Positions 886 through 30,162 of a DNA stretch of 34,318 bases are shown here, piece after piece. The notes under the pieces are model-generated. The model made no database searches and was not told where the DNA came from. It was given only the letters and a program-made list of their open reading frames with translations. The stretch is from Candidatus Thorarchaeota archaeon (GTDB taxonomy: Archaea; Asgardarchaeota; Thorarchaeia; Thorarchaeales; Thorarchaeaceae), in assembly GCA_004524445.1 (NCBI GenBank), contig SDNP01000030.1:1-34318 (forward strand). The letters run 5' to 3'. How positions within the stretch are numbered: position 1 is the first letter of the stretch; each line of letters starts with the position of its first letter. Position numbers and translations under genes: made by a program.

Positions 886-1461
886 TTACCGGCCTGGCTC
901 AACAACTATTCGGTAGTAGTATGTCTTTCCTGCAGTAGGGCTCTCTCTCTCAATTCTAATGACCTGCCCAACCTTGGCTCCGAGAACTCTTGCAGCAGGA
1001 TCATTTCTCCTGATTCTTGGAAATTGGGACTTGTCAATCCCATAATGCTCAGTGACCAAGTCAACTTCATCCTTGCTCGCGATTGTATGCTTTGGCACAA
1101 GTTGGTGACCAAATAGTTCGAATGAAGGATATCCTCCCTCAATTAGCTCTACCCGGGTGGCCCTAGCATGCTTCTTGGCTGCAGGAGTGAAACGGTCGCC
1201 GCCAACAATCATCCCTTCTTGGGCATTATGGTCAGCCATGTCGCGTACAACATCCCGCACCAGAGCAATCCCGATGACCTTCGGAACTTTGTAAATCCAT
1301 ACTGCTTTCTTTAGTATGTCATCTTCAATACGCTTTCGGGGGTACATCTGAAATCGGTTTTCATACTCCAGAAGCTCGTCAGCCTGATACCCTCTAAGAT
1401 TTAGCAAGTCTCTTGTCTTGATAACCATTTCAGGAAGCTCTGCCAACTTCAATACACCCAC
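886..1461 (-). CDS. rpoH: RNA polymerase subunit Rpo5/RpoH with an N-terminal restriction-endonuclease-fold (jaw) domain, i.e. eukaryotic Rpb5-like architecture
   Basis: C-terminal HQLVPKH...QFPRIRRNDPAARVLGAKVGQVIRIERESPTAGKTYYYRIVV is the Rpo5/Rpb5 assembly domain; the extra ~115 N-terminal aa carry LRGY and IGIALVRD...GMIV...FTPAAKK. Exact start uncertain (GTG 1461 or a downstream TTG/ATG). Confidence 0.9.
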   Translation of the reverse strand: MGVLKLAELPEMVIKTRDLLNLRGYQADELLEYENRFQMYPRKRIEDDILKKAVWIYKVPKVIGIALVRDVVRDMADHNAQEGMIVGGDRFTPAAKKHARATRVELIEGGYPSFELFGHQLVPKHTIASKDEVDLVTEHYGIDKSQFPRIRRNDPAARVLGAKVGQVIRIERESPTAGKTYYYRIVVEPGR

Positions 1462-1491: not shown

Positions 1492-1499
1492 ATATAAGG
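1492..1499 (-). promoter_or_regulatory. Probable TATA box for rpoH (CCTTATAT on minus strand), implying a very short or absent leader
   Basis: TTATAT about 30 nt upstream of the GTG start, the usual archaeal TATA spacing. Confidence 0.45.
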
Positions 1500-1577: not shown

Positions 1578-1700
1578 TTAGTCGCCATCGTATATTCTCA
1601 TTGGCTCGCCACAACATACTAAGGTTCCAGCGCCAGATTTCTTTACAACAACAATTTGCTGACATATATCACAGACATAGGTTGCTCCTTCTTTAGCCAT
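1578..1700 (-). CDS. Desulforedoxin (stand-alone FeCys4 iron-binding protein), 40 aa; not in ORF track
   Basis: Manual translation: MAKEGATYVCDICQQIVVVKKSGAGTLVCCGEPMRIYDGD*; YxCxxC...GxGxLVCCGxPM is the desulforedoxin signature; alternative in-frame ATG at 1709. Confidence 0.88.
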   Translation of the reverse strand: MAKEGATYVCDICQQIVVVKKSGAGTLVCCGEPMRIYDGD

Positions 1701-1861
1701 CGTTATCATCCTGCTAGTATTGATTGTGGAGACTGATATCACTGTCATTTATGGCTTTCTCAATAACACTTGGTAGAAGCAAATCCTCATGGTTCGACCT
1801 ATAGCCTCATATTCGGGGTGTTGGTGCCCTCTAGATAATAGAATTTAACGAGGTCAATCAT

Positions 1862-6686: not shown

Positions 6687-7940
6687 TCAAAGGAATTCAG
6701 TTAGTTGCTTCTGGGAGGTGTATTCGTTATATAGGTCACTCGATTCGAGGTACCTCTCCAAGGGTTCCTCTAGGAGGTAGGATATCAAATCTAGAGATTC
6801 TTCAAGGTTTGAAAAATGTCTACCACCTTTCGAAAAGGCACGCCTGGCAATTTCACGGAATCTCCAAACGCCCAACGGAACCCATTTTTTGGGATTGACC
6901 TCCATGAAGATAAGGGCGCCAGCTTGACGTTTCATCTCATCTAATTGTTCCAGCACTGGCAAGCGCGTTGCATAATATGCCCCGACCACATTGCTTGCAT
7001 ACTTCTTTCTCCCCTTGTGCCATTCATAATCGGATAACACTGGAGGATTGGGTGGACCCAACCAGCATTCCAATGCCTCAAATTGCCAAGCGGAGGGCAC
7101 GAATAGTGCAATGACTTTGTTGCCAAGGGCGTAATCCGCATAGACATGGTAATCGTTAATCCATTTGTACCGGAGCACTTTCTTGTGTAGCTCCTTACCT
7201 ATGATATCATCAGTGGCTGTTATGCTCCATTCTGTTGGTACCAATTTCCTTTGCTTCTTTTCACCGAGCAACCCAATTGATAACAAACGCGAAATATGTT
7301 GTTGATTGATGCCTTCTTCAAACAGGTTCATGACACCGGATGTTGCCTTAAGGTCTGTATCCGAAGTCACTTTGTCAACAGGCTTCGGAACGGCTGGATT
7401 GTCACTGAGTTTGAATAGCTGCAAGGGTGCTGAGGGGCCGATCGGAAGAGTTCGCTGAGAGAAGATACTGGTAAAAGAAGGACGCTTTATGAGCTCAGCT
7501 TCAGACTCTAGTGGCGTTTCAGATAGGGCCATTGTCTGTGTTTCATGCAGCAATCTTGGTGGTTCCACGGCAGCATCGACAGGGATTGGTTTCTTTGTCC
7601 GTACTAAACTAAACCTGAGCGTTAGAATCTCGTCAAGGCTTTTATTGAGCCACAAATCCGGGCGTTCCATCAATGATGTTTCTCTGCCGTGAATAGGGGG
7701 CACTAATGGGCCCGCCAGTACTTTGGGATAACCATGAGAACCCACAAACACAGAAGGAGGTGATGATCCGGAGAGGTCTAGACCCGAAACTGCATTCTCG
7801 ATATCGGTTAGGGCCTTTGCTCTCATCAACAACGGGCATGGAGTAATACCGCATAGAGCTCTGTGTCCCATACACCTGGAACAGACTCTATCATTATATG
7901 ATATTCCTGCTCCTGCTGGCTCAAGCTCTTTCTGTGACAT
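6687..7940 (-). CDS. nreA: Nre family archaeal DNA repair protein
   Basis: CxxCxG..LCG..CP N-terminus, GSSPPSVFVG.GYPKV, RKLVPTEWSITATD, GAYYATRL, C-terminal PIP box QKQLTEFL. Confidence 0.93.
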   Translation of the reverse strand: MSQKELEPAGAGISYNDRVCSRCMGHRALCGITPCPLLMRAKALTDIENAVSGLDLSGSSPPSVFVGSHGYPKVLAGPLVPPIHGRETSLMERPDLWLNKSLDEILTLRFSLVRTKKPIPVDAAVEPPRLLHETQTMALSETPLESEAELIKRPSFTSIFSQRTLPIGPSAPLQLFKLSDNPAVPKPVDKVTSDTDLKATSGVMNLFEEGINQQHISRLLSIGLLGEKKQRKLVPTEWSITATDDIIGKELHKKVLRYKWINDYHVYADYALGNKVIALFVPSAWQFEALECWLGPPNPPVLSDYEWHKGRKKYASNVVGAYYATRLPVLEQLDEMKRQAGALIFMEVNPKKWVPLGVWRFREIARRAFSKGGRHFSNLEESLDLISYLLEEPLERYLESSDLYNEYTSQKQLTEFL

Positions 7941-13719: not shown

Positions 13720-16362
13720 TCATTTCTTGAGAGGACGTTCAATCATCTCAATCTGACTATCGATCTCTTCATTAAGGTCAGTTAGACCTCTCACATCGGC
13801 TATCCGCTGTACGGCCTTGAGGTTATGAATAACTGAATCTAACCATGAGTAAATATCGCCAGGGTATGCCCATAATTCAAATTCCTCGCGCATCTTGCTG
13901 GAAATTCCTGAAGGGTTCATGCCCTCCTTTCTTTTCTTTACAATCCATTTTCCAATCTCTATTTTTGGATGGTCACATTCTGGGAAATCCTTGCATTCAC
14001 AGGTGAAAAATGTCGAACCCCATTTCCCAAAGAGTTCAAAAACCCATTGAGGTAATCTACTAGCTCCACCCTGTTTCTGACCTACATCAGTCATGTCCAT
14101 AAATGCGCCAGAAAAGAGTCTGGTTGGCATATGAGTTCTGAAAGCTTGATTCACTTCGGCTTGAAGTTTTGAACTGAGATAGATGTTCTCTAATGGGTCT
14201 AGCTTAATTGCGATGTCAAGAACATCCATGTCATCCGTCAGTTTTGCCACTTCGTAACCCTCACTGGGACTTAAGAATGAAACAGACGTTGCTCTACCCA
14301 AAGGCGTCGGGTGAACCTCACCACTCTTAACACGAATCATATGATTTCTTACTAGATGTTTCATGGCCTCAGAGGGTGCAACAGACGCCGATAGCATTTG
14401 CAGGTAAATTCTAGCCACGGCCTTCAAATCAACGAGCCCAGTTGAACAAATCGTTGCAAGAATTTGTTCTGCGGATGCTTCCTTATTGGCAAAGGGCTCC
14501 ACATCCTCAATTTCGCCCTCAAGAATACGTGTTGCCACTTGATCCTCAGTGAGGTCTTGTCCAGAATGATATTTTCTTTCGGGTTCAATGAGTAGGTAGA
14601 CCTTTCCACGGTCATGCTTTCCAAGTCGACCAGCTCGTCCGAGCATCTGTTCGAACTCAGCAGTTGTAATCCAATGTGCGCCCATTGCCAGCGTTTCGAA
14701 AATGACTTGAGATGCCGGCAAATCAACCCCAGCGCCAAGTGCTGCAGTAGTTATGACACATGGATAGCGTTGCTTTCCGTATGAGTATTCGATACTCCTT
14801 CTATGAGAATATGAGAGACCTCCATGATAGACGGCACTTCTGACCCCATGCTCTCTCATCCAGTCACTTATTGAGTGTGCCCGTCTTCTTGAAAAGGTGA
14901 ATACTATCGATTGTCCTTTATTGCCACTGCTGCTTGTTTGCCTAAACTCATCTAGTACTAACCTCCTAATTATGGAACGTTTTGCTTCTTCATTTCGCGC
15001 GAAAACCACATGCCGCTCAAGCGTAACAGGGCGCCCAGTATAATTAACCAGTTCCAGATTCAAATCCTTGGCTAACAGGTCCGGGGAGCCAACAGTTGCT
15101 GATAGAGCAAGTATCTGAGCATTGGGTGCGTAGAATCTCAGCCGAGATAATATTCCGTCGAGCTCAGGACCTCTTTCTGAATCTGCTAGATTCTGTATCT
15201 CATCTACGACAATTGTACCTATTTCACCAAGTTTCCTTGTTTCCCCTGAACGCAGCAGCAAATCAAGGGCTTCATACGTCGCACAGATGATATCCGATTT
15301 CTCCACATCAGTGTCAACAATAGGTTTTCCTTCTTCGCCCACCTCCAGTCGGGACATTCCTACCCGAATACCTACTCTGAGACCAAGCTTTTTGTACCGC
15401 TTTCTGAAAACTTCGTATTTTTCGTTCGTTAAGGCAACCAAGGGTGACAGATATATCATCTTCTTTCCATCTAATGCCTTGGGCACCCCAGCGAACTCTC
15501 CCACCATTGTCTTTCCTGATGATGTTGAGGAGACTATGAGAAGGTCCTCTCCCTTCAGTAAGCCGGCTCGAACTACCTTCTCCTGGACTGGCAAAAGAGT
15601 ATCAAACCCCTCCTCTATCAGCATGTCCCGCATACGTTGAGGGATTTGTAGGTCTCCAATCTTCCTTCCGTCTACTACTTCGCCCCTTGACAGAGTATCG
15701 ACTTTGGTGATTTCGGGATCGCTGGTGGGGTCAAAATTCGGGTCAACCAAATCCAAGATTCTTGGCAATGATTTGACACGGAGAAGCTGCCTCTCCATGT
15801 GTCTAAGCATTGGTTTCGACATCTTGATGCCCATGGCCTTCAAGTCAGTTCGAAGTTCAGTCTTTGAACACGCTCCACAAAGAACTTGATGAGAAGAAAT
15901 CTTCACTGCATTCCTCTTTGACAGTACCGTCAGCCTGCGGTCCCGCATACAATTCGGGCATACAGTTACTACTCTTGGTTCTGTCGCACTGATTCGGTTC
16001 AATAACTCCTTTAGCGAGTCAATGAAGTCAGGGGATTGGCCTTTTGGCACTATTATGTATTTGGCTTTGCGGAGGACATCATGAAATTCACTAGGCTGAT
16101 AGTAGACAGGTTTGTTGTATTTCACAAACCATGAGCGACGAATTTCCAGCAGACCGTCATTTCGATAGCCATACTCAACCATCCCGCGTAGCAGCGCCCG
16201 CTGTCGATCCATGAGCACATCTTGGAAGACCTCTACACGGGTTCCTAATTCTTGCCTACTATCACGTAGAACGATTCCATATGGCTTTCTGAGCCTCTTT
16301 TGTATGTCTGCGTGAGCAACTTCCACTGGATTCACTATTCTTCGAGGCTGACCAAGTGCCAA
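13720..16362 (-). CDS. Archaea-specific superfamily II Ski2-like DExH helicase (COG1202 / ASH-Ski2 type)
   Basis: LLPVQ, TSSGKT, PLVALTNEK, DEIQ, SAT, YHGGL, QMLGRAGR; N-terminal CxxC...CxxC and C-terminal CECKDFPECDH Zn sites. Confidence 0.9.
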   Translation of the reverse strand: MALGQPRRIVNPVEVAHADIQKRLRKPYGIVLRDSRQELGTRVEVFQDVLMDRQRALLRGMVEYGYRNDGLLEIRRSWFVKYNKPVYYQPSEFHDVLRKAKYIIVPKGQSPDFIDSLKELLNRISATEPRVVTVCPNCMRDRRLTVLSKRNAVKISSHQVLCGACSKTELRTDLKAMGIKMSKPMLRHMERQLLRVKSLPRILDLVDPNFDPTSDPEITKVDTLSRGEVVDGRKIGDLQIPQRMRDMLIEEGFDTLLPVQEKVVRAGLLKGEDLLIVSSTSSGKTMVGEFAGVPKALDGKKMIYLSPLVALTNEKYEVFRKRYKKLGLRVGIRVGMSRLEVGEEGKPIVDTDVEKSDIICATYEALDLLLRSGETRKLGEIGTIVVDEIQNLADSERGPELDGILSRLRFYAPNAQILALSATVGSPDLLAKDLNLELVNYTGRPVTLERHVVFARNEEAKRSIIRRLVLDEFRQTSSSGNKGQSIVFTFSRRRAHSISDWMREHGVRSAVYHGGLSYSHRRSIEYSYGKQRYPCVITTAALGAGVDLPASQVIFETLAMGAHWITTAEFEQMLGRAGRLGKHDRGKVYLLIEPERKYHSGQDLTEDQVATRILEGEIEDVEPFANKEASAEQILATICSTGLVDLKAVARIYLQMLSASVAPSEAMKHLVRNHMIRVKSGEVHPTPLGRATSVSFLSPSEGYEVAKLTDDMDVLDIAIKLDPLENIYLSSKLQAEVNQAFRTHMPTRLFSGAFMDMTDVGQKQGGASRLPQWVFELFGKWGSTFFTCECKDFPECDHPKIEIGKWIVKKRKEGMNPSGISSKMREEFELWAYPGDIYSWLDSVIHNLKAVQRIADVRGLTDLNEEIDSQIEMIERPLKK

Positions 16363-22654: not shown

Positions 22655-22766
22655 TATTCTTCGGGAGCTGAAGCACGCAGATAAATCAAATAAGTAGAGA
22701 AGTAGCTCATCCAAGTAGATGGGATATACAAAGAGAAACTATACCCCCATTAGATAGGTGAAATTC

Positions 22767-24692
22767 ATGGGTGATGGAAAGCTTTGGCTAGGTTCCTATT
22801 TGGATGAGGAAGGAAAACGAACTGAAAAAAGATTTGAAATTAATATTGACTTATTACGCAGACACGGAGGAGTCTTCGGTTCAACTGGGTCGGGGAAGAC
22901 TGTTCTTAGCAAAGCAATTGTTGAAGAAGCAGCACTTGAAGGAATTCCTGTAATTGCATTCGACCCTCAAGGGGACATTGCATCATTGATGCTACCGGGA
23001 GATCCGAAGGAGCTTGAATCCAAAGGAGTGCCACCCGAGAGATTACAGAAGTATATGGACAAAGTACAAGTCAGAGTCTATACACCCGCATCAAGCAAGG
23101 GTCTCGCAATTTCCATTAACCCGCTAAAACTTCCTGACAAAAATGCAGACCAGGACGACATTATTCGATTACTGGATAATTCAGCGAGGACTCTGGTGAA
23201 GGTCCTAACAAAAGTAGGGGGGCTATCAAGATCCTGGGAGAGCAAGTCGTTTGCTGTTTTATACGAATTACTTCGGCACATCTGGGAAACTGAAACAGAA
23301 GACCTTGATGGTTTGAGTGAGCTAGCCAATCTATTGGTAGCTGACTCTGAGGAACTTGGGGTCAATCTAGAACCCTACATGAAGCTCTCCGAGAGACAAA
23401 AGCTAGCTACTACTATCCGAACACTGACTGTCGGTTCCTCGCAGCTGTTATTCAGAGAGGAAGGCCAAATCAACTTCGATGAACTGACGAAACCTGTGAA
23501 TGGCAAGACGCCGATTAATGTGATATTCCTCAAGACCTTGAGAAGCGAAGAAGAAAAACACTTCTTCATCGCAATTGTGTTAAACCAATTATACTCATGG
23601 ATGCTACGACAAGGTTTTTCCGAGAAGCCCAGAATGCTGCTTTTCCAAGACGAGGCAGCTCCATTTATCCCCGCAGGTATGAAAGCGCCTGGCCCGAAGG
23701 AAACATTTCTTCTATTATTTAGGCAGGCTAGAAAATATGGTGTTGAGTGCCTGATTGCTACTCAGAGTCCGAAAGATATCGATTACAAAGCGTTTGAACA
23801 ATTCAATACAATCGCATCGGGCAGAATAAGCAGTCAACAATCACTGAAAGTGCTTGAGAGAATTCTTGAGCCTGTGGCTGGAGAGAGAGAATCGGAGGAA
23901 ATCATCAAAATGCTACCCGGTCAACAAACCGCTTCCTTCGTGTGCTCATCAGCAGACCTGAAACCGAAAGTCAATCGAATTGGAGTCCGTTGGTTGCTGA
24001 CCAAGCACATTACACTTACTGAGCGTGATATCAAGAAACACATGGCTGAGCTGGTCAAAGAACAAGAGAAGATTCTGAAGGAACTAGAAAAGAAACGAAT
24101 TGCAGAAGAAAAGAAACGCGAAGAGGAGCGAAGAAAGGCCAAGGAATCCAAGAAGAGGGAGGAGAAAGTAAGAAGACTGGAGGCTGAGCGGAAAAAAGAG
24201 CTTGAAGCAAAGAAAAGCAAGTTCGCGAAGGCAGGAATGGAGGAGAAGATCTTCGAGACAAAGGGGCAAGCTGAGAAGTTTTCTTATGAAGACCTAATGA
24301 ATGGATTCATTGCTCGGATAGAAAAGGTAGCTAGGACCGCATTTGGTCTCCCATTTCTGAAAGAATTGGTGAAGCGAGGAGAGCTGAACTATGAGAAGGC
24401 ACTTACCTTCTACCTCAAAGAAACTCGTGCTGCAGTCAAACAAGGATTGGCAAGAAAAGAAGTGAAACAAGTCAAGAAGTATGGGCGCACCAGGAATATT
24501 GACTACATAATCTATGACTTTGAGTATGTGTTGGACAAAGTACTGCAGAGTATGGGTATCAAGGCACCTGAATATGTCGATGAACAGAGACTAAAGAAAC
24601 GATTCGAAGAATTACTAAGAAAAGCCAAGAGAAATTCACTCATTGAAAGAATAGCATTAGGAGAACCGCTCTTGGAGTTCGGAGCCAATTAG
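22767..24692 (+). CDS. HerA/FtsK-like (DUF87/DUF853) ATPase with charged coiled coil and C-terminal domain
   Basis: RHGGVFGSTGSGKT, FDPQGD, LFQDEA, RQARKYGV..LIATQSP; K/E/R-rich helix at about aa 430-495. Confidence 0.88.
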   Translation: MGDGKLWLGSYLDEEGKRTEKRFEINIDLLRRHGGVFGSTGSGKTVLSKAIVEEAALEGIPVIAFDPQGDIASLMLPGDPKELESKGVPPERLQKYMDKVQVRVYTPASSKGLAISINPLKLPDKNADQDDIIRLLDNSARTLVKVLTKVGGLSRSWESKSFAVLYELLRHIWETETEDLDGLSELANLLVADSEELGVNLEPYMKLSERQKLATTIRTLTVGSSQLLFREEGQINFDELTKPVNGKTPINVIFLKTLRSEEEKHFFIAIVLNQLYSWMLRQGFSEKPRMLLFQDEAAPFIPAGMKAPGPKETFLLLFRQARKYGVECLIATQSPKDIDYKAFEQFNTIASGRISSQQSLKVLERILEPVAGERESEEIIKMLPGQQTASFVCSSADLKPKVNRIGVRWLLTKHITLTERDIKKHMAELVKEQEKILKELEKKRIAEEKKREEERRKAKESKKREEKVRRLEAERKKELEAKKSKFAKAGMEEKIFETKGQAEKFSYEDLMNGFIARIEKVARTAFGLPFLKELVKRGELNYEKALTFYLKETRAAVKQGLARKEVKQVKKYGRTRNIDYIIYDFEYVLDKVLQSMGIKAPEYVDEQRLKKRFEELLRKAKRNSLIERIALGEPLLEFGAN

Positions 24693-28680: not shown

Positions 28681-30162
28681 ATGCTTGAGATTCCAAGTTC
28701 AATGAACAATAAGATAGAGCAAGCCATTGAAGCCATCAACCAATCAGGAAAGGTTCTGGCGATTTCACACATTGATACTGACGGCATCACCGCGATGGCA
28801 ATCATAGTTCAGTTTTTGCAGCGTGCGGGAAAGGAATACCTCTGGAAGAATATTCATCAGCTGAACTCAGAGAGCATTCTGACGGTCTTGGAATTGGCAG
28901 AGTCTGAAAAACCGGACACAATAATCTTTACTGACTTGGGAACGGGTCAATATCCCCTCATAGAATCAAGTCTTACAGATTTGCCTTTTGTAAGAAGCAT
29001 AATAATTCTGGATCACCATCTCCCAGGAGATAGAGAACTGCCCAGTAGAAACGATCGAAGAGCGGAGATTATTGAGGTTAATCCATGTCAACATGGTCTG
29101 AGTGGAAGTTCCGACATATCTGGAGCGGGTGTGGCCTTTCTACTAGCATATTTTTACGAATCAGAGAATATTGACCTCATTGAGCTAGCCATAGTTGGAG
29201 CCACGGGAGATCTTCAACGATACTATGGAAGAGGATTCCGTGGACTTAACAAGCAAATCCTTGATTTAGGAAGAGATGCGAGATTCATTTCTGTTGACAA
29301 AGACCTTACTTTCTTTGGAATCAACACTCGACCACTCCCCTATCTTCTATGCTATGCGACCGACCCCTATTTACCAGGCATTACTGGAAATGAAGAATCT
29401 TGTTTCTCATTCTATTCTGATTTGAATATCGATATCAAAAGTGATGATCGCTATAGGGTCTGGATTGACCTTGTTAATGGTGAGAAAAAGAAGGTCATTC
29501 AAAAGCTTGTTGCGCATATCTTAGAAACATATGAAAATCCAGCAATCGCTAAAGGGATTGTCGGAGATGTTGTCAATCTTCTCAGCAGACCAGAGAGAAG
29601 CGAGCTCAGAACAGCCAAGGAATTTTCCACAATGTTAAACGCCTGTGGGCGAAATAGGAGAGCCGATGTAGGAGTAAAGGTTTGCTTAGGAGAACCCGAA
29701 GCAATCATAGAGGGTCGTAACCTCTTACGACAACATCGTGCGAATCTTGCTTCTGCCTTACGACGGATTGAAACAAATGGCTATGATGAAAAACCGGGAA
29801 TGTATATTGTTGATGACCCAGAAACACAAGACACCATAATCGGTATTGTAATTGGAATGGCACAAGGCTCCAAAATAATTCCATGGGAGAAACCGGTGAT
29901 TGGAGTTAGCACAAACACAACAAACAAAACAACCCTCGTTAAGATATCAGGTCGTGCTCGTAAGAATCTAGTCACCATTGGTATTAATCTAAAGGAGGTT
30001 TTCACCAGTGTTGGAAAGGACATCAACGAGAGAGAGGGCAGAACAGTTATTGAAGCAGGAGGGCACCCAATGGCCGCGGGAGCATTTGTTGAAAATGGTT
30101 TTTTGGATGAATTTCTCCGGCTCTCCTCAAACAAGATGGATTCTATCCTAAATTCTAGCTAA
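28681..30162 (+). CDS. RecJ-like DHH/DHHA1 phosphoesterase (archaeal RecJ/GAN, Cdc45 relative)
   Basis: SHIDTDG, FTDLG, ILDHH, GATGD, EFSTMLNACGR, GGHPMAAG. Confidence 0.92.
   Translation: MLEIPSSMNNKIEQAIEAINQSGKVLAISHIDTDGITAMAIIVQFLQRAGKEYLWKNIHQLNSESILTVLELAESEKPDTIIFTDLGTGQYPLIESSLTDLPFVRSIIILDHHLPGDRELPSRNDRRAEIIEVNPCQHGLSGSSDISGAGVAFLLAYFYESENIDLIELAIVGATGDLQRYYGRGFRGLNKQILDLGRDARFISVDKDLTFFGINTRPLPYLLCYATDPYLPGITGNEESCFSFYSDLNIDIKSDDRYRVWIDLVNGEKKKVIQKLVAHILETYENPAIAKGIVGDVVNLLSRPERSELRTAKEFSTMLNACGRNRRADVGVKVCLGEPEAIIEGRNLLRQHRANLASALRRIETNGYDEKPGMYIVDDPETQDTIIGIVIGMAQGSKIIPWEKPVIGVSTNTTNKTTLVKISGRARKNLVTIGINLKEVFTSVGKDINEREGRTVIEAGGHPMAAGAFVENGFLDEFLRLSSNKMDSILNSS

Follow-up and report, generated by a model that had tools for sequence, protein, structure and literature searches.

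An archaeal Rpo5 subunit from Thorarchaeota with an N-terminal homologue of the eukaryotic Rpb5 jaw domain

The archaeal RNA polymerase subunit H (Rpo5/RpoH) has been described as the C-terminal domain alone, and the N-terminal module of its eukaryotic counterpart Rpb5 is called eukaryotic (PMC3906176, PMC1802627). The Pfam family for this module, RNA_pol_Rpb5_N (PF03871), is listed as occurring in Eukaryota only (PMC3424549). Recent surveys of archaeal polymerase subunits make no mention of a longer archaeal Rpo5 (PMC13257274, PMC13556214), nor is one mentioned in PMC13607799, PMC13539645, PMC10833476, PMC12993045 or bioRxiv 10.1101/2020.06.28.176255, and full-text literature searches, which do not cover subscription journals, gave no description of an archaeal two-domain Rpo5. 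Here we analyze a stretch of 34,318 nucleotides from an uncultured Candidatus Thorarchaeota archaeon (assembly GCA_004524445.1, contig SDNP01000030.1, positions 1 to 34,318; hereafter the window), in which a gene on the minus strand (886..1446) encodes an Rpo5/RpoH protein of two domains. We propose that this gene is the sole Rpo5/RpoH of the organism, and that its product combines an ordinary C-terminal domain with a dead Mrr-type N-terminal domain homologous to the Rpb5 jaw. We give this reading a probability of roughly 85%.

Eukaryotic Rpb5/RPABC1 (PF03871 plus PF01191; yeast 1dzf, human 7vba_E and 8uhd_E, Schizosaccharomyces pombe 3h0g_E) has both of these domains, arranged in identical order, and can be aligned with the window protein over its whole length. 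The archaeal N domain nevertheless measures ~105 amino acids (aa) against ~130–140 aa in Rpb5, being ~25 residues shorter and lacking the segment that eukaryotes have inserted between helix 1 and the sheet, and identity between the N domains is only ~17–20%. Furthermore, Rpb5 serves Pol I, II and III, whereas the window protein would serve the single archaeal polymerase. Viral Rpb5 homologues (African swine fever virus, ASFV, 8q3b_E; vaccinia virus, 6rfl_E) are likewise two-domain, Rpb5-like subunits of a multisubunit polymerase, but they belong to a viral setting and are much more distant from the window protein, with 7–14% identity and, when the N domain is compared with ASFV 8q3b_E, a VIA-align Z of 7.4.

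The second point of comparison is the short archaeal Rpo5/RpoH (Pyrococcus furiosus 8cro_H, Thermococcus kodakarensis 4qiw_H, Saccharolobus (S.) solfataricus 2waq_H), a single domain of ~75–100 aa that is present in single copy, as is the window gene. The C-terminal 75 residues of the window protein are 40–54% identical to these proteins, and the C-domains superpose with a template modelling (TM) score of ~0.81–0.84 (target-normalised). Unlike them, the window protein has ~110 extra N-terminal residues that make up a folded domain, and its gene does not stand at the head of rpoH-rpoB-rpoA, a linkage that short-form Asgard genomes keep. Finally, Mrr-type PD-(D/E)XK nucleases (PF04471; AF1548, 1y88; C-domain of EndoMS/NucS, 5gkj) have the same fold as the N domain, which differs from them in the residues replacing the catalytic acids and in being fused to a polymerase subunit.

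The C-terminal assembly domain (aa 117–188; 898..1113, minus strand) is readily assigned. Pfam Rpb5_C (PF01191) matches aa 117–186 with an E of 3.6e-26 and 91.2 bits (cut-off 23.5 bits), and the protein passes the NCBIfam RpoH equivalog model NF007129 with 95.4 bits (cut-off 83 bits); the best matches of the C-domain among Protein Data Bank (PDB) sequences are the Rpo5 proteins of P. furiosus and T. kodakarensis. In yeast Rpb5, H147, P151, D182, R200 and R212 touch Rpb1, and mutants in these residues are lethal or conditional (PMC1802627). All five are kept in the window protein at a constant offset of 28 (H119, P123, D154, R172 and R184); across 46 relatives four of the five are invariant and P123 is found in at least 90%. 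Judging from these residues, the C-domain looks functional.

The N-terminal domain (aa ~6–110 of the protein, P0001; 1132..1446, minus strand) shows, over its whole length, a specific homology to the N-terminal jaw domain of Rpb5 from eukaryotes. Using phmmer against PDB sequences, aa 52–185 align with residues 70–208 of S. pombe Rpb5 (E 5e-19); the likeness to Rpb5 therefore extends well into the N domain. Structure searches lead to the same proteins: with the full-length AlphaFold model (predicted local distance difference test score, pLDDT, of 84, from a 46-sequence alignment), the top 34 Foldseek matches are Rpb5 chains aligned over ~200 columns (E 1e-13), while archaeal subunit H chains span the C-domain only. 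For profile comparisons, we built one alignment of N domains from 29 diverse archaeal long forms (A2) and another from 14 eukaryotic Rpb5 proteins (A4). Compared by hhalign, the two alignments match with a probability of 98.6 and an E of 8.7e-16 across the whole domain (columns 7–107 versus 9–127), with a single large gap that lies opposite the eukaryotic insertion. A hidden Markov model (HMM) built from A2 and run against all PDB sequences retrieves Rpb5 chains alone at significant E (1.9e-10 to 3e-3), and no solved nuclease reaches a significant score. In structural superposition with VIA-align, the N-domain model fits residues 4–131 of Rpb5 with a Z of 9.0–9.6 and a root mean square deviation (rmsd) of 3.0–3.5 Å over 97–99 of 103 residues. 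These results bear out the central claim of a preliminary description of this DNA, made from sequence alone, that the protein is an Rpo5 with an N-terminal restriction-endonuclease-fold domain homologous to the Rpb5 jaw; they also set it apart from a recent Mrr fusion that fails to superpose on the Rpb5 N domain.

Shared motifs link the archaeal long forms and Rpb5 at the level of single residues. Both contain an RGY helix, a VG(V/I)..(V/I)R helix and a TP.A.K motif, and the order of the domains and their junction are identical. The parallels to yeast Rpb5 that the preliminary description had drawn (RGY; VGI..VR; TPAAKK) are reproduced by phmmer and hhalign. The arginine of RGY (R23) is the sole invariant column among the archaeal N domains of A2 and aligns with the invariant arginine of eukaryotic DRGY, one of just two invariant columns in A4. 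Its yeast counterpart is R26, for which the mutation R26E is lethal (PMC1802627).

Several observations weigh against this reading, and some of them speak for a convergent fusion, in which an Mrr-type domain joined RpoH in archaea independently of the eukaryotic event and the likeness to the jaw reflects membership of a shared superfamily. Of the two relevant Pfam models, only the nuclease model recognizes the window protein: Mrr_cat (PF04471) matches aa 62–109 with an E of 4.8e-6 and 27.1 bits (gathering score 21 bits), although over profile positions 60–108 of 115 only, whereas PF03871 gives no match at E ≤1. NA-iREase1, an ‘inactive restriction endonuclease’ family, also matches the N-terminal part, below its gathering score. 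The same imbalance holds for the 29 archaeal relatives, of which 28 match Mrr_cat and three match PF03871, weakly (best E 6e-4), and NA-iREase1 too matches long forms much more frequently than PF03871 does; the 14 eukaryotic Rpb5 controls all match PF03871, and eight match Mrr_cat weakly. Superposition of the N-domain model on the nuclease domains of AF1548 (1y88) and EndoMS (5gkj) gives a Z of 10.7 and an rmsd of 2.8–2.9 Å over 94 residues, so that on the predicted structure alone the N domain would be as close to true nucleases as to Rpb5. A tree of N domains with six Mrr outgroup domains has no resolution and fails to place the Mrr sequences on one side, the outgroup not being monophyletic, and our trees as a whole leave a single origin of the archaeal and eukaryotic fusions undecided. 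In addition, the linker between the domains (aa ~111–116; 1114..1131, minus strand) falls in a stretch of low confidence in the full-length model (pLDDT below 50 for residues 112–121), so that the model does not fix how the two domains lie with respect to each other.

We nevertheless consider convergent fusion improbable. The failure of PF03871 is explained by the extent of this model, which spans just the first ~90 residues of Rpb5, eukaryotic insertion included. Against convergence also stand the hhalign match over the entire domain and the common motifs, domain order and junction; moreover, structurally similar nucleases are absent at significant scores from a profile search that finds Rpb5 alone.

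While related to nucleases, the N domain has apparently lost their activity. Catalytic positions were read from an alignment with canonical Mrr domains of Asgard and Bathyarchaeia genomes (ETDV...; I-E-C-K or D-x-K). In the window protein, Q38 stands at the position of the catalytic Asp and I56 at that of the acid of (D/E)xK, and K58 is retained; two of the three catalytic residues are thus lost, in agreement with the earlier remark that no intact nuclease motif is visible. No acidic column is conserved in the 29 sequences of A2. Some relatives and some eukaryotic Rpb5 proteins retain one catalytic residue, and none of the alignment rows listed has all three. By these alignments, the N domain is to be read as a catalytically degenerate (dead) nuclease.

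The gene encodes the only Rpo5 that we could identify in this organism. A six-frame search of its genome (2.79 Mb, 64 contigs, 90% complete) with E up to 1 yields one Rpb5_C match, the window gene. As the preliminary description had noted, the gene lies outside the rpoH-rpoB-rpoA operon: rpoB and rpoA are located on another contig (C33). There is no rpoH upstream of rpoB on C33, where we find DinB and SIS genes on the opposite strand and small intergenic open reading frames (ORFs) without family match. Across 400 genomes of the Asgard phylum, 369 have an Rpb5_C match, nearly all in exactly one copy, and the N domain is encoded in 228, as a rule within an open frame 180–230 aa long; among the matches listed, no genome pairs a long with a short Rpo5. 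In each of five long-form Asgard genomes, taken from five families, the long gene is the sole Rpb5_C gene, present in one of them as two tandem copies. The long rpo5 lies at least 18 kb from rpoB or on another contig in these five genomes and in two Bathyarchaeia genomes, whereas in all five short-form genomes checked rpoH is directly upstream of rpoB. Because the long form is the sole Rpb5_C gene and is detached from rpoB, while the short form adjoins rpoB, we conclude that the long form replaces the short operon-encoded rpoH.

These counts bear on a second explanation, that the long protein is a paralogue which coexists with a short RpoH and defines a second or alternative polymerase. Such a paralogue and an alternative polymerase composition had both been suggested in the preliminary description. 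The detachment of the gene from rpoB would fit, as would the two tandem long copies of some Thorarchaeial genera. On the other side are the single Rpb5_C match in the organism’s own, 90% complete genome, the lack of anything resembling rpoH upstream of rpoB, and the near-universal single copy in Asgard genomes without a long and short pair among the matches listed; in the genus of the window organism (g1), both genomes searched have one copy. Neither suggestion is sustained by these data, and we regard a variant polymerase as very improbable.

Genomes with two copies belong mainly to the Thorarchaeial genera g3, g11, g12, g13 and g16, with three other genomes. Examples of Thorarchaeial loci with two long copies, tandem in the pairs examined, are G364:C207:2663-3830, G371:C31:10849-11828 and G369:C1:2176842-2178040 (loci L041 and L044). 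The two copies of G369 are sisters in the full-length tree described below (99/88), and the duplication therefore arose within Thorarchaeia. A different arrangement is seen in G128, a 5.8-Mb Asgard genome of family f19, in which two Rpb5_C genes (C1:150104-150322 and 254160-254378, in long frames of 206 and 184 aa) are not tandem and are separated by ~104 kb.

Returning to the two-domain Rpo5 as the organism’s only subunit H, we find that the window gene is one ordinary member of a large family of long forms. Within Asgard archaea, the short form (frames of 81–125 aa) characterizes families f4, f5, f6, f21, f22, f23 and f29, and the long form is found in most other families (f1-f3, f7-f19, f24, f26-f28, f30-f33). 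Source names connect clusters of long forms with Thorarchaeota, Hodarchaeales and Helarchaeota. A profile of long forms from outside the Thorarchaeota group found 403 proteins, among which one large group predominates; when species-representative genomes were scanned with this group, at least 417 loci were confirmed, and most of the best 80 of these are titled Bathyarchaeia or Bathyarchaeota, the rest bearing broader or other labels. Closed genomes with the long form include OY969706.1 and CP170178.1, and in these the gene is again distant from rpoB. In an even sample of Thermoproteota, the phylum of Bathyarchaeia, 54 of 401 genomes have the N domain, the sample carrying no class labels. Accordingly, the long form is what most Asgard families and Bathyarchaeia normally carry, and it is not specific to Asgard archaea. 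Being lineage-wide in these groups, the fusion is not recent.

Variants of the architecture were also recorded. In family f8 (G015 C1:1464294-1464827, L042; G019, G026, G037, G039 and G040), the long Rpo5 occupies frames of 227–345 aa, and the protein of G015 ends in an acidic C-terminal tail (…EEEVVEDIEEDIEEEL), an extension absent from Thorarchaeial proteins. In some genomes of the Thermoproteota sample, the N-domain profile also recognizes an open frame of ~200 aa away from the main long Rpo5, as a second and more divergent match (E 1e-13 to 1e-20); these matches include G400:C1:2250706-2250993 (Bathyarchaeia OY969706.1), G725:C2:114999-115301 and G695:C3:25375-25677.

The relationship of the archaeal long forms to eukaryotic Rpb5 was addressed with a full-length tree of 65 sequences (LG+C20, posterior mean site frequency model). 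The eukaryotic sequences come together in a single clade (100/98) that has a long branch and falls outside the archaeal long forms altogether. Among the archaeal sequences, support is found for a Thorarchaeial clade (100/100), an Asgard group with Hodarchaeales-type sequences (88/93) and a clade containing Bathyarchaeia (97/98), and the archaeal part starts from a basal polytomy. Approximately unbiased (AU) tests reject neither of two placements of eukaryotes, with the Hodarchaeales-containing Asgard group (p 0.45) or with the Bathyarchaeia clade (p 0.39). With this polytomy and with neither placement rejected, the tree does not point to one donor lineage for Rpb5 of eukaryotes. Like the N-domain tree, a C-domain tree of 106 long and short forms has no resolution; long and short forms are interleaved in it (17 changes), an outcome to which truncated gene calls mistaken for short forms contribute.

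Support for a common descent of the two-domain architecture thus comes from sequence homology, common motifs and identical layout, and not from a resolved tree. More specifically, two-domain Rpo5 may have arisen in archaea before eukaryotes, with eukaryotic Rpb5 descending from an archaeal long form, a tentative proposal that we hold at a little under even odds. The earlier designation of the gene as a candidate ‘precursor of Rpb5’ is plausible but unproven: the homology of the N domain agrees with it, and the tree placement, with its polytomy and neither AU alternative rejected, does not bear it out. The reverse path, transfer into archaea from eukaryotes or giant (nucleocytoplasmic) viruses, could invoke the two-domain viral homologues of ASFV and vaccinia virus, which are among the structural matches. 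This path is most improbable given the single eukaryotic clade on its long branch outside all archaeal long forms, the lack of the eukaryotic insertion in the archaeal proteins, and the lineage-wide presence of the long form in two archaeal lineages of different phyla, where sequences mostly cluster by lineage.

How the two-domain subunit could work can be outlined by analogy with Pol II structures and yeast genetics. The C-domain would dock on the largest subunit (A'/A'') and anchor the protein in the polymerase. The N domain, held by the C-domain, would then lie next to downstream DNA, at the lower jaw, and may act there as a structural, DNA-proximal or factor-docking module, and presumably not as an enzyme. 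A complex prediction of the N domain alone with the A'' part of Rpo1 (P0421, 394 aa) returned no verdict, at a score of 0.00 and with no controls run, and speaks neither for nor against binding.

The long Rpo5 is of interest for understanding how the transcription machinery evolved. Should the polymerase indeed incorporate the long form, a further transcription feature supposed to be eukaryotic would predate eukaryotes, and what the Rpb5 jaw does could be examined in a simpler system with one polymerase. If in addition eukaryotic Rpb5 descends from an archaeal long form, the lower-jaw module of Pol I, II and III would be an archaeal invention, which most Asgard lineages and Bathyarchaeia still have in their one polymerase, and the jaw module there might alter the handling of downstream DNA or the recruitment of factors. 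A simple story leading from Asgard archaea to eukaryotes is tempered by three observations: the gene tree is without resolution, some Asgard families (f21 and f22 among them) have the short form, and Bathyarchaeia also carry the long form, so that the trait is no Asgard-only link to eukaryotes.

The extent of the protein depends on the choice of start codon. The longest ORF at the locus (886..1461) begins with GTG at 1461 and encodes 191 aa; this is the ORF of the preliminary description, which gave no strand and correctly recognized a C-terminal Rpo5/RpoH domain. Most relatives measure 186 aa and begin with M-[VAI]-E-[LI]-P, for which reason TTG at 1446-1444 (MAELPEMVIK..., 186 aa plus stop) is the likely start. 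Read off the sequence, a candidate ribosome-binding site, GGGTG (1455..1459, minus strand), is found 8 nt upstream of this TTG, and a TATA-like hexamer, TTATAT (1492..1497, minus strand), ~48 nt upstream; the latter suggests that rpo5 has its own promoter.

A gene-call artefact, in which translation is confined to the C-terminal 80–108 residues and the frame upstream merely happens to be open, could appeal to the 81–108 aa products annotated in several National Center for Biotechnology Information (NCBI) records of the same 90% clusters, but is hardly credible in view of the conservation of the N part at the protein level in hundreds of clusters (from 95% identity for the closest one to 30–43% in distant full-length relatives), the full-length ORF open in every long-form genome examined, the pLDDT of 96 reached by the N domain folded alone, and the TATA-like box and GGGTG preceding the upstream start. 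The extra N-terminal residues pointed out in the preliminary description, which more than 110 clusters conserve, are, in short, real protein.

Public records are affected by the choice of start as well. NCBI records that share 90%-identity clusters with proteins of 182–186 aa annotate RpoH as the C-terminal 81–108 aa only, as in the clusters of P0116-P0120 (Thorarchaeota, 108 aa) and of P0436, P0437 and P0423 (Bathyarchaeia, 81–91 aa). Gene calling from an internal Met therefore conceals the N domain in some database entries, a practical point for anyone using these annotations, and the long proteins that are deposited carry the plain label ‘subunit H’.

The immediate neighbours of rpo5 are a convergent gene for a 256-aa membrane protein, a same-strand upstream gene for a 56-aa desulforedoxin-like protein and an EamA transporter gene; no polymerase genes are found among its neighbours in the window. 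The 56-aa protein (1578-1748, minus strand) has a desulforedoxin-type N-terminal domain (Desulfoferrod_N, E 1e-12), and its gene ends 116–131 bp upstream of rpo5, depending on whether the distance is taken to GTG or TTG. Co-transcription of the two genes is unlikely, because the TATA-like box stands between them. The remaining window, which has no tRNA genes, is ordinary archaeal chromosome in appearance. Among its genes are those for an Nre protein (6687-7940, minus strand), a DEAD-box helicase with a DUF5814 tail (13720-16362, minus strand), a HerA-type ATPase (22758-24692, plus strand) and a RecJ/Cdc45-like protein of the GAN type with DHH/DHH-CID/DHHA1 domains (28681-30162, plus strand).

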